Source: a virus (Duplodnaviria; Heunggongvirae; Uroviricota; Caudoviricetes). Taken from it: a stretch of DNA of 9,788 nt. The translations under genes were made by a program, and so were the position numbers. The stretch spans positions 1 through 9,788 of the IMG/VR virus record IMGVR_UViG_2693429554_000021, one strand, 5' to 3'. Shown in pieces: positions 1,264-3,807 of the stretch; the first letter of the stretch is position 1; every line of letters begins with the position of its first letter. Under the pieces are notes generated by a model. The model had not been told where the DNA came from. It searched no databases and saw only the letters and a list, made by a program, of their open reading frames with translations.

Positions 1264-2454
1264 ATGGCAAGAAAAACCAAGCCGTTAACCGATACGGAAA
1301 TCAAAGCCGCCAAACCTAAAGATGCCGATTACCAGCTTTATGATGGTGATGGGCTGACCCTGTTAATAAAGTCCAGCGGTAGTAAGCTCTGGCAGTTCCG
1401 TTACTATCGGCCTCTAACCAAACAGCGAACCAAGCAGAGCTTCGGTGCCTACCCTGCTGTCTCCCTTTCTCATGCGCGTAAACTCAGAGCTGAATCTCGA
1501 GTTTTGTTGGCAAAAGATATTGATCCTCAGGAACACCAGAAAGAACAGGTGAGGAATTCTCAAGAGGCCAAAACCAACACCTTCTTGTTAGTTGCCGAGC
1601 GTTGGTGGAATGTGAAGAAAGCCAGCGTAACAGAGGACTATGCCGACGATATCTGGCGCTCGCTTGAGAGAGATGTTTTCCCAGCAATCGGTGATATCAG
1701 CGTCACTGAGATTAAGGCTCATACTCTGGTTAAAGCTGTTCAGCCGGTTCAGGCCAGAGGTGCATTAGAGACTGTTCGCCGCCTTTGTCAGCGTATTAAC
1801 GAAGTCATGATTTATGCGCAGAACACAGGCCTGATTGATGCAGTTCCCAGTGTAAATATCGGAAAAGCGTTCGAGAAACCGCAAAAGAAAAACATGCCGA
1901 GTATCCGTCCGGATCAGCTTCCACAGTTAATGCAAACAATGCGTACAGCAAGTATCAGTATGTCAACGCGGTGCTTGTTCATGTGGCAGCTTCTCACCAT
2001 TACCCGCCCTGCCGAAGCCGCTGAGGCACGATGGGATGAGATCGATTTCAGTGCTAAAGAATGGAAAATTCCAGCAGCTCGTATGAAGATGAACCGAGAC
2101 CATACGGTTCCACTATCGGATGAGGCTCTTTCTATTCTGGAAATGATGAAGTCACTCAGTGGTGGCCGAGAGTTTATCTTTCCCAGTCGCATCAAACCAA
2201 CCCAGCCAATGAACAGCCAAACAGTTAATGCCGCACTTAAGCGTGCTGGCTTAGGAGGCGTACTCGTATCACACGGTTTACGCTCTATCGCTAGTACGGC
2301 ACTCAATGAGGAAGGATTCCCGCCTGATGTCATTGAAGCAGCACTGGCTCATGTAGACAAAAATGAGGTACGTCGCGCTTACAACCGCAGTGATTACCTT
2401 GAGCAACGTCGTCCGATGATGCAGTGGTGGGCTTACTTTGTAGTGGCACACTGA
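1264..2454 (+). CDS. intA: P4-type tyrosine integrase (IntA-like), 396 aa as encoded; last four codons and the stop are supplied by the IS left end
   Basis: MARKTKPLTDTEIKAAKPKDADYQLYDGDGLTLLIKSSG... is the N-terminus typical of P4-family integrases next to ssrA; C-terminal HxxR...Y region (ALAHVDKNEVRRAYNRSDY) is present. ATG at 1264 with GGAG 7 nt upstream; the ORF-track start at 1228 is an upstream TTG. Codons 2440-2454 lie inside the IS inverted repeat. Confidence 0.9.
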   Translation: MARKTKPLTDTEIKAAKPKDADYQLYDGDGLTLLIKSSGSKLWQFRYYRPLTKQRTKQSFGAYPAVSLSHARKLRAESRVLLAKDIDPQEHQKEQVRNSQEAKTNTFLLVAERWWNVKKASVTEDYADDIWRSLERDVFPAIGDISVTEIKAHTLVKAVQPVQARGALETVRRLCQRINEVMIYAQNTGLIDAVPSVNIGKAFEKPQKKNMPSIRPDQLPQLMQTMRTASISMSTRCLFMWQLLTITRPAEAAEARWDEIDFSAKEWKIPAARMKMNRDHTVPLSDEALSILEMMKSLSGGREFIFPSRIKPTQPMNSQTVNAALKRAGLGGVLVSHGLRSIASTALNEEGFPPDVIEAALAHVDKNEVRRAYNRSDYLEQRRPMMQWWAYFVVAH

Positions 2455-2510
2455 ATTTGGCCACCTGAACAGAGGTGATATGCTCACCTCAGAACAACAC
2501 AGGTGCTCCA

Positions 2511-2813
2511 ATGAAAAAAAGAAATTTCAGCGCAGAGTTTAAACGCGAATCCGCTCAACTGGTTGTTGACCAGAACTACACGGTGGCAGATGCCGCCAAA
2601 GCTATGGATATCGGCCTTTCCACAATGACAAGATGGGTCAAACAACTGCGTGATGAGCGTCAGGGCAAAACACCAAAAGCCTCTCCGATAACACCAGAAC
2701 AAATCGAAATACGTGAGCTGAGGAAAAAGCTACAACGCATTGAAATGGAGAATGAAATATTAAAAAAGGCTACCGCGCTCTTGATGTCAGACTCCCTGAA
2801 CAGTTCTCGATAA
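2511..2813 (+). CDS. insN: IS911 OrfA (InsN-like transposase DNA-binding subunit), 100 aa
   Basis: [53 protein letters not shown]... has a helix-turn-helix and leucine zipper typical of IS3-family OrfA. The ATG at 2511 is preferred over the upstream GTG at 2475 used by the ORF track. Confidence 0.85.
2762..2768 (+). other. A AAA AAG slippery heptamer for programmed -1 ribosomal frameshifting (OrfA to OrfAB)
   Basis: AAAAAAG at 2762-2768 lies in the orfA frame near its 3' end; the -1 frame stays open downstream into orfB ([33 protein letters not shown]...). Confidence 0.7.
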
Positions 2814-3681
2814 TCGGGAAACTCAGAGCGCATTATCCTGTGGTCACACTCTGCCATGTGTTCGGGGTTCATCGCAGCAGCTACAGATACTGGAAAAACC
2901 GTCCTGAAAAACCAGACGGCAGACGGGCTGTATTACGCAGTCAGGTACTTGAGTTGCATAACATCAGCCATGGTTCTGCCGGGGCAAGAAGCATCGCCAC
3001 AATGGCAACCCTGATAGGCTTCAGAATGGGGCGCTGGCTTGCCGGCAGGCTCATGAAAGAACTGGGACTGGTCAGTTCTTTCATGAGCCTGCGCACCGTT
3101 ATAAACGAGGTGGTCGTGAACATGTCACTATCCCGAATCACCTTGGGCGGCAGTTCGCAGTGACAGAGCCAAATCAGGTATGGTGCGGCGACGTGACGTA
3201 CATCTGGACGGGGAAACGTTGGGCATACCTTGCCGTTGTTCTCGACCTGTTTGCAAGGAAACCGGTAGGTTGGGCAATGTCGTTCTCTCCAGACAGCAGA
3301 CTGACCATCAAAGCGCTGAAAATGGCCTGGGAAATCCGCAGTAAACCAGCCGGGGTAATGTTCCACAGCGATCAGGGCAGCCACTATACAAGCAGGCAGT
3401 TCCGGCAGTTACTGTGGCGTTACCAGATCAAACAGAGTCTGAGTCGACGAGGAAATTGCTGGGATAACAGCCCGATGGAGCGCTTCTTCAGGAGTCTGAA
3501 AAACGAGTGGATACCGGTGACGGGTTACATGAACTTCAGCGATGCTGCCCATGAAATAACGGACTATATCGTTGGGTATTACAACGCGCTCAGGCCGCAC
3601 GAATATAACGGTGGGTTGCCACCAAATGAATCGGAAAACCGATACTGGAAAAACTCTAAAGCGGTGGCCAGTTTTTGTTGA
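2765..3681 (+). pseudogene. insO: IS911 orfB (InsO-like DDE transposase catalytic domain), disrupted by a frameshift near 3073-3090
   Basis: The N-terminal part is in the -1 frame relative to orfA and stops at 3161-3163; the C-terminal part (RYKRGG...[31 protein letters not shown]...[10 protein letters not shown]...) continues in a different frame to 3681. Both parts resemble IS3-family OrfB. Confidence 0.75.
3045..3092. repeat. 20-bp perfect inverted repeat with 8-bp spacer inside orfB
   Basis: GCAGGCTCATGAAAGAACTG (3045-3064) and CAGTTCTTTCATGAGCCTGC (3073-3092) are exact reverse complements; the orfB frame break maps to the right arm. Confidence 0.9.
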
Positions 3682-3689
3682 CCACTACA

Positions 3690-3780
3690 CTACCTTCAGA
3701 TACGATGCTGCCTCTTCACGAGTGAAGATTTCTTCTTCCACCTGGAATCTCCATTTATTGAGTTGGTATTATTGCGGTAG
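3690..3780 (+). other. Possible displaced 3' end of the integrase gene (about 30 codons in frame with the pre-insertion intA frame)
   Basis: Joining the sequence before the IS to the sequence after it keeps the intA frame open to TAG at 3778-3780. A 30-codon open stretch has a fair chance of occurring randomly, so this is weakly supported. Confidence 0.35.
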
Positions 3781-3807
3781 GTCTGGATATCATTGAGCAA
3801 TGAACAG

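Follow-up and report, generated by a model that had tools for sequence, protein, structure and literature searches.

IS911 belongs to the IS3 group of the IS3 family of insertion sequences (IS) and moves by copy-out-paste-in transposition through a circle, generating a 3-bp duplication of its target. The loss of target duplications through recombination between IS copies, and through deletions adjacent to them, is well documented, for example in the IS150 events of the long-term evolution experiment (LTEE) (PMC11708052). Here we analyse an IS911-like element with mismatched flanks in IMG/VR virus record IMGVR_UViG_2693429554_000021, positions 1 to 9,788; this whole stretch of 9,788 nucleotides is called the window below, and its DNA is that of Escherichia coli. 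As the initial annotation recognized, the element (2439-3689, with 91% identity to IS911) interrupts the 3′ end of intA, the P4/CP4-57-type integrase gene adjacent to ssrA, and the triplets on its two sides, CTT (2436-2438) and CTA (3690-3692), make no target-site duplication. All that the annotation says about the letters themselves is borne out. We conclude that the two sides of the element almost certainly derive from two different insertion events, one in intA and one in an excisionase-like gene (xis) of a prophage at thrW. The features at the joint are as follows.

1264..2454, + strand: intA′, gene for a P4/CP4-57-type tyrosine integrase, truncated (Pfam domains; comparison with the intact gene of NZ_CP151005, locus L003; annotated intA in L001)
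2436..2438, no strand: CTT, triplet on the left flank, presumed to be one half of the duplication made by the intA insertion
2439..3689, + strand: IS911-like insertion sequence of the IS3 family, defective (inverted repeats; identity to annotated copies)
2439..2465, + strand: left inverted repeat (IRL), TGTAGTGGCACACTGAATTTGGCCACC (inverted-repeat search)
3663..3689, + strand: right inverted repeat (IRR) (inverted-repeat search)
3690..3692, no strand: CTA, triplet on the right flank, one half of the 3-bp duplication made by the xis insertion (seen as CTA/CTA at the thrW loci L002, L016 and L017)
3690..3741, − strand: xis′, codons 1-17 (VEEEIFTREEAASYLKV) of an excisionase-like HTH_17 gene that the IS interrupts (gene reconstruction; uninterrupted copy in L020)

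The two flanks of the element

On the left, the integrase frame comprises 396 codons, from an ATG at 1264 to a stop at 2452-2454 inside the left inverted repeat, and its product ends ...WAYFVVAH, as initially described. The protein is native to codon 393 and the DNA to position 2438; the final codons, VAH, and the stop are supplied by the IS. The intact intA of NZ_CP151005 is 99.9% identical to the window up to the break, encodes 413 residues and ends ...WAYFVKKADSGRLTDVELTTLKLTG, its sequence beyond the break point being ...FVKKADSGRLTDVELTTLKLTG. The window gene keeps 393 of these 413 residues and lacks the last 20 (394-413), whose native sequence is KKADSGRLTDVELTTLKLTG*. Matches to Arm-DNA-bind_3 (PF13356), Phage_int_M (PF22022) and Phage_integrase (PF00589) are all above cut-off, and the last of these covers residues 214-378 of 396, which agrees with the earlier statement that the catalytic region lies upstream of the break. 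With these domains, and with a start 204 bp past the end of ssrA, intA′ has the marks of a P4/CP4-57-type integrase, save a full-length native C-terminus. Judged from its sequence, intA in the window is a pseudogene-like allele that keeps the predicted catalytic domain and has lost 20 C-terminal residues; the tail of a paralogous integrase, ...FVQAADRGSIIEGGMKGMRLVG*, is similar to the native intA tail, and for this reason the lost tail is probably not dispensable. The left junction between intA and the IS also occurs in L001, L005-L014 and L028-L030, and at least four different right flanks are seen on it.

The right flank is where the initial annotation and our results part. That annotation leads to a model of a single insertion in intA, a degenerate CTT/CTA duplication, and a displaced native 3′ end of the integrase at 3690-3780, with its terminator after it. 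In its favour, the frame to the right of the IS does stay open in the integrase phase, for 29 sense codons from 3691 to a TAG at 3778-3780, and a hairpin follows. The phase resumes because the length of the IS is 3 × 417, and the open frame by itself carries no weight, because random stretches of 29 codons are open about 25% of the time. The native tail and its DNA, by contrast, are unrelated to this segment: between the 3′ DNA of intact intA (NZ_CP151005) and window 3690-4300, the best blastn-short matches are chance words of 8-11 nucleotides (nt), and the tail translations are likewise unrelated. The initial annotation had itself named alignment to an intact integrase as its test, with dissimilarity at 3690-3780 as the result that would sink the idea, and dissimilarity is what the alignment gives. 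Excising the IS from the window produces ...WAYF-YLQIRCCLFTSEDFFFHLESPFIELVLLR*, which is unrelated to intact IntA and is not what a simple insertion leaves behind. The hairpin exists, at 3808-3826, but it is part of the prophage flank and not a terminator of the integrase; a 71-nt region around it folds no better than shuffled sequences (z = −1.3), and we rejected it as a terminator. We give the single-insertion model virtually no credence.

What follows the element is instead the start of another gene on the opposite strand. The minus strand from 3741 to 3691 reads VEEEIFTREEAASYLKV, and the window segment after the IS matches, at 96.6% identity and in that orientation, the beginning of an excisionase-like gene that is not interrupted. 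At thrW in LR778142 (L002), NZ_CP039404 (L016) and NZ_CP148268 (L017), the IS is bounded by CTA on both sides. Removing the IS and one CTA from the thrW copy restores a gene of 115 amino acids, with a PF12728 (HTH_17) match of 35.4 bits against a cut-off of 27, that is 97% colinear with the uninterrupted gene found in L020 beside an integrase gene and proA. CTA occurs once at that uninterrupted site, which is an empty site for the xis insertion. In both L020 and L023 the excisionase-like gene lies upstream of int, is co-oriented with it and overlaps its start; the reconstructed gene accordingly has the domain and the position, directly upstream of int, of an int-xis module, of which the window holds codons 1-17 only. 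By this comparison, 3690-3741 is the 5′ stub of a putative excisionase-like gene with the IS in codon 18, and CTT and CTA are not a degenerate duplication; they read as halves of the duplications made by two insertions, one in intA and one in xis.

In the closest genomes, the two halves of the window are found apart from each other on one chromosome. In NZ_CP039404 (strain 377323_2f), window 1100-3689 is 100% identical to 3,738,434-3,741,023 (+) and window 3690-9788 is 100% identical to 1,163,743-1,169,841 (+), where thrW, int, the xis 3′ part and a separate IS copy come ahead of the right-half sequence. Strain Z1323PEC0014 (NZ_CP148268) carries both window halves at 100% identity in the same arrangement. 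In these two strains the halves lie 2.2-2.6 Mb apart and the IS copies are direct repeats. The prophage that carries the excisionase-like gene lies at thrW, 2.2-2.6 Mb from ssrA, in every related complete genome examined (L002/L004, L016, L017 and L031), and window 2439-4300 is 99.2% identical to the thrW-linked IS and its right flank in LR778142/146/152. The IS in the window has the haplotype of the ssrA copy, being 100% identical to the ssrA-locus copy of 377323_2f; position 2620 is the sole difference between it and the thrW copy of Z1323PEC0014. The ssrA and thrW copies share an identical stretch of 1,069 bp (2621-3689).

We surveyed 5,426 complete E. coli genomes, and none covers more than 81% of window 1100-4300, the region that spans the join. 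Neither the reciprocal joint (thrW-int-′xis-IS-int2′) nor the cognate junction of IS end, CTT and native intA 3′ end was found in the same set, and the original CTT duplication is not demonstrable because that cognate junction was not found. An exact-pattern scan for the left junction gave no match among genome contigs; it gave two viral contigs that end inside the IS, neither with the window-type join, and one metagenome contig of 1.9 kb that has the usual AATTGGCG flank and likewise no window-type join. We read 24 contigs encoding the truncated integrase (from an index of 351 collection blocks), and the 10 listed all have other right flanks. Contigs encoding the 114-amino-acid open reading frame (ORF) that lies beyond the xis stub include none linked to intA; the same search recovered the empty xis site. 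A candidate ssrA-linked copy of the prophage, the H20 locus (CFSAN004176), was rejected because it holds another prophage, one located at gal-bio (the lambda att site).

The IS911-like copy and its alleles

The element is 1251 bp long, begins 5′-TG and ends CA-3′, and has imperfect terminal inverted repeats of 27 nt (74% complementary; TGTAGTGG...CCACTACA); its length, within 1.2-1.5 kb, and its TG...CA terminal repeats are those of the IS3 family and IS911 group. Its coding features are these.

2511..2813, + strand: orfA, 100 amino acids (HTH_Tnp_1 match)
2840..3163, + strand: orfB 5′ part in the −1 frame (HTH_21; out of frame at 3077, stop at 3161-3163)
3045..3092, no strand: perfect 20-bp inverted repeat in orfB, arms 3045-3064 and 3073-3092 (inverted-repeat search; alignment to the intact copy of L002)
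3160..3681, + strand: orfB 3′ part, DDE catalytic core (rve, rve_3 and rve_2 above cut-off; frame differs from that of the 5′ part)

An A_AAA_AAG −1 slippery heptamer lies within orfA at 2762-2768, and orfA and orfB show the frame 0/−1 arrangement with an A6G slippery site that characterizes the group. The HTH_21 match of orfB scores 24.1 bits, under the Pfam gathering cut-off of 28.1 bits. Against copies annotated as 'IS3-like element IS911 family' by the Prokaryotic Genome Annotation Pipeline (PGAP), nucleotide identity is 91.0-91.1% over the full length, and against ISEc52 it is 88%; copies at 99% identity or above occur in 653 E. coli records. PGAP labels this IS simply 'IS3 family transposase'. 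By ISfinder convention isoforms share about 95% nucleotide identity. Because identity to IS911 is 91%, the element is, as classified from its sequence, a sibling of IS911 below the isoform level, and the label 'IS911-like' given to it initially is correct.

The window copy does not encode an intact OrfAB transposase, and a copy identical to it carries the PGAP flag 'frameshifted'. Compared with the intact copy of L002, an ancestral ...CAGT-TGCCAGC-AGCCTGC has become ...CAGT-TCTTTCATG-AGCCTGC, a net gain of 2 nt at 3077-3085 that turns a quasi-palindrome into the perfect inverted repeat and parts the HTH_21 portion of orfB from its rve core. This sequence signature is that of a quasi-palindrome template-switch mutation. 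With the +2 frameshift no OrfAB that includes the catalytic domain can be made; the copy is dead and could be moved in trans only. Some strains have the palindrome allele and nearby single-nucleotide polymorphisms in both the ssrA and the thrW copy, and others have them in neither copy, which implies either ectopic gene conversion or recurrent mutation at a hotspot; L030, an ssrA-locus contig, has the thrW-type base at 2620. The thrW copy of NZ_CP039404 is distinct in another respect: it has A5 in place of A6 in the slippery run (window 2762), making a 1250-bp element. Read literally, this run would fuse orfA and orfB in frame, and it may be a homopolymer sequencing error.

IS911 has been reported to insert beside sequences resembling its own terminal repeats. 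In the native intA 3′ end (L003, about 4353-4368), GATAGTGGCAGACTCA matches the left inverted repeat at 12 of 16 positions, 13 nt past the insertion point, and 15 of 2000 shuffles did as well. Since 12 tests were made in all and the xis site shows no counterpart, the evidence is marginal, and we do not find targeting to an IS-end-like sequence convincing.

DNA to the right of the element turns over among its carriers. All the right flanks seen next to the IS are in genes of recombination modules: a second P4-type integrase (with two endpoints), a lambda-type int (L013, without about 40 of its N-terminal residues) and the xis-like gene. Such flanks could reflect a bias of targeting or of selection, or could simply be tolerated sites. 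Nested deletions have one endpoint precisely where the IS ends on the right, one of 615 bp at the ssrA locus (CP027104, L008, compared with CP027103, L007) and one of 711 bp (window 3690-4400) at the thrW locus of Z1323HEC0355 (NZ_CP148363, L031), and this end seems prone to adjacent deletions. A promoter-like site spans the right end at 3678-3706, with an outward TTGACC in the right inverted repeat, a TACGAT in the flank and a 17-nt spacer; it would read antisense into the xis stub, and such sites are no commoner in the region than in shuffled sequences.

Origin of the join

In our reading, the left side of the window is the junction of intA and IS that is widespread at ssrA; the integrase is cut after codon 393, and CTT remains as the left half of that insertion's duplication. 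The right side is the right junction of a second copy, one that inserted with a clean CTA duplication in codon 18 of the excisionase-like gene of a defective lambdoid prophage. The window is a hybrid joint produced by exchange between the two copies, somewhere within the 1,069 bp from 2621 to 3689, and the assembler would have made that exchange by following a contig path into the repeat from the ssrA side and out of it on the thrW side. We lean, by a narrow preference, towards such an assembly misjoin over an event in vivo, given that the repeats are direct and nearly identical and that the join is seen nowhere else in our survey; a repeat of this kind is hard for an assembler because 1,069 bp do not distinguish the copies. 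The analysis shows what each flank is, the empty sites, the orientation of the copies and the absence of the join elsewhere; from topology and that absence we infer that the join was made in silico. Several points weigh against a misjoin. Assemblers break at repeats more often than they misjoin them; the same intA::IS left junction has other right flanks in real complete genomes, and flank turnover is in that sense real; and the distribution of alleles in the two IS copies suggests ectopic gene conversion between ssrA and thrW, that is, copies that interact in vivo. Moreover, our survey comprised complete RefSeq genomes and a few large contigs, and draft assemblies sharing the join would fall outside its scope.

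The chief competitor is a real join, made in the source strain by RecA-dependent recombination between the ssrA and thrW copies, and we regard it as a credible alternative that is on balance not the one we expect. The joint could then have arisen as the new junction in a large tandem duplication, or as the outcome of a multi-step rearrangement through further IS copies; it would leave an orphan truncated intA beside a prophage remnant that has no int and a broken xis. The 1,069 identical bp common to both copies would serve such recombination, alleles common to both loci suggest exchange in vivo, and 3-8 matching places in related genomes could serve stepwise inversions. A precedent of sorts is L013, in which the same left junction is joined to a lambda-type int followed by RND efflux genes, and a duplication missing at an IS commonly results from recombination between identical ISs or from adjacent deletion (PMC11708052). 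Set against this, the copies are direct repeats 2.2-2.6 Mb apart, and for that reason a single crossover in vivo would give a Ter-containing duplication (about 2.6 Mb, more than half the chromosome) or an excised circle, leaving two circles, and not a stable inversion; the products of one crossover are not expected to be stable, or dominant in an assembly, a stable product would take several steps by way of other IS copies, and neither recombinant joint occurs in the 5,426 complete genomes. A third route, adjacent deletion or intramolecular transposition, would have the IS in intA delete rightward into a prophage lying in a tandem array at ssrA. It has parallels in the right flank of CP027104, which is that of CP027103 less 615 bp, in the 711 bp lost to the right of the thrW copy of Z1323HEC0355, and in the usual flank on the right at ssrA, a fragment from within the second integrase that starts AAT and likewise has no duplication. 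Yet the right junction of the window matches to the base an independent CTA/CTA insertion at thrW, the same endpoint arising by chance being very unlikely, and the prophage sits at thrW, not in the ssrA array, in all relatives examined; we hold this route to be highly improbable.

The lesson of this joint is mainly one of caution. All the elements and processes involved are already known and present in annotated public genomes, and the joint makes no open question testable. An IS with mismatched flanks should be read first as two insertions joined through a repeat and not as a sloppy duplication, with recombination, adjacent deletion and the assembler all considered as joining routes, and a frame that stays open beyond an IS does not show that a gene end has been displaced. 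The window should be annotated with intA as a pseudogene minus 20 C-terminal residues, 3690-3741 as an xis fragment and the IS as non-autonomous. The initial suggestion of an element 'less able to excise' is not applicable here, since the DNA to the right of the IS belongs to another element, the thrW prophage, and excision polymerase chain reaction across attL/attR is not meaningful for the arrangement in the window. What stands to the right of the IS is a prophage remnant with a broken xis and, within the window, no int. A physical join, in which a dead IS copy in the ssrA integrase acted as a portable patch of homology and recombined with its twin in the thrW prophage, strikes us as rather doubtful. 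If physical, it would record that ssrA and thrW took part in a rearrangement of more than 2 Mb in nature, either a duplication joint or a stepwise translocation, and, with at least four right flanks seen, would cast the intA::IS junction as a hub at which downstream islands are repeatedly swapped or trimmed; if real, it would document that an IS mediated a very large rearrangement in an E. coli isolate from nature, a matter of modest importance.

Neighbouring features and described systems

The remaining features of the window lie upstream of intA, around ssrA, and downstream of the xis stub, in the prophage.

1..483, + strand: smpB, ORF of 160 amino acids (smpB annotation in 100%-identical E. 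coli records)
698..1060, + strand: ssrA, transfer-messenger RNA (tmRNA) (ARAGORN; annotated ssrA), attachment site of the intA island
3808..3826, no strand: hairpin with a 7-bp stem, between the 114-amino-acid ORF and xis (flank identical at thrW loci)
3842..9788, − strand: lambdoid prophage remnant, early-left region (100% identical to the annotated thrW-linked prophage in NZ_CP039404 and NZ_CP148268)
4524-4982, − strand: PACE transporter gene (prophage annotation)
5086-5970, + strand: LysR regulator gene (prophage annotation)
8662-9342, within the early-left region (−): exo (prophage annotation)
Further early-left genes: hypothetical ORFs, a dATP/dGTP pyrophosphohydrolase-domain protein, ead/Ea22, TraR/DksA, DUF1382, DUF1317 and the 3′ part of bet

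Over bases 1-1263, strains EC12 and Z1323HEC0355 match the window at 100% identity. ARAGORN reads the tmRNA tag at 787-822 as ANDESYALAA; the canonical E. coli tag is ANDENYALAA, and this lineage would accordingly carry an AAC to AGC (N to S) change in the portion of the tag that is linked to binding of SspB. In EC12 and Z1323HEC0355 the ssrA region is 100% identical to that of the window. Several relatives show the ssrA site to hold tandem arrays, with further elements between ssrA and intA (L001 1-3000, L032 1-4000, L006, L012 and L014); these are either a prophage that brings an integrase of its own or a P4-like satellite that has a primase-helicase. In the prophage, window 4524-5970 holds a PACE-family biocide efflux gene and a divergent LysR gene as cargo between xis and ead/exo/bet.

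Compared with CP4-57 IntA and other P4-type integrases at ssrA, intA′ has the same position directly downstream of ssrA, the same three-domain architecture and the annotation intA in identical records; it differs in that residues 394-413 are replaced by VAH and in that the cognate island content past the IS is replaced in every carrier examined. The reconstructed xis resembles the HTH_17 excisionase-like genes found upstream of int in lambdoid prophages in its above-cut-off PF12728 match and its overlap with the start of the adjacent integrase gene, but at 115 amino acids it is longer than classical Xis proteins; the window carries 17 codons only, and an excisionase role is putative. The insertion sequence itself is like IS911 in length (1251 against about 1250 bp), in its TG...CA ends and imperfect terminal inverted repeats, in its HTH_Tnp_1 orfA, rve DDE core in orfB, 0/−1 frames and A_AAA_AAG site, and in the 3-bp duplication seen at the intact thrW insertion, and unlike it in its 91% nucleotide identity, in the orfB +2 frameshift of the window copy and in the mismatched flanks there. 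The joint as a whole is comparable to the IS150 events of the LTEE and to repeat-induced assembly chimeras, in that its mismatched flanks are each traceable to a different parental insertion and nested adjacent deletions occur in sister strains. Unlike in those cases, the two parental copies are separated by more than 2 Mb and lie in direct orientation, and the usual viable outcomes of local deletion or inversion are therefore inapplicable, which points to an artefact or a duplication joint.

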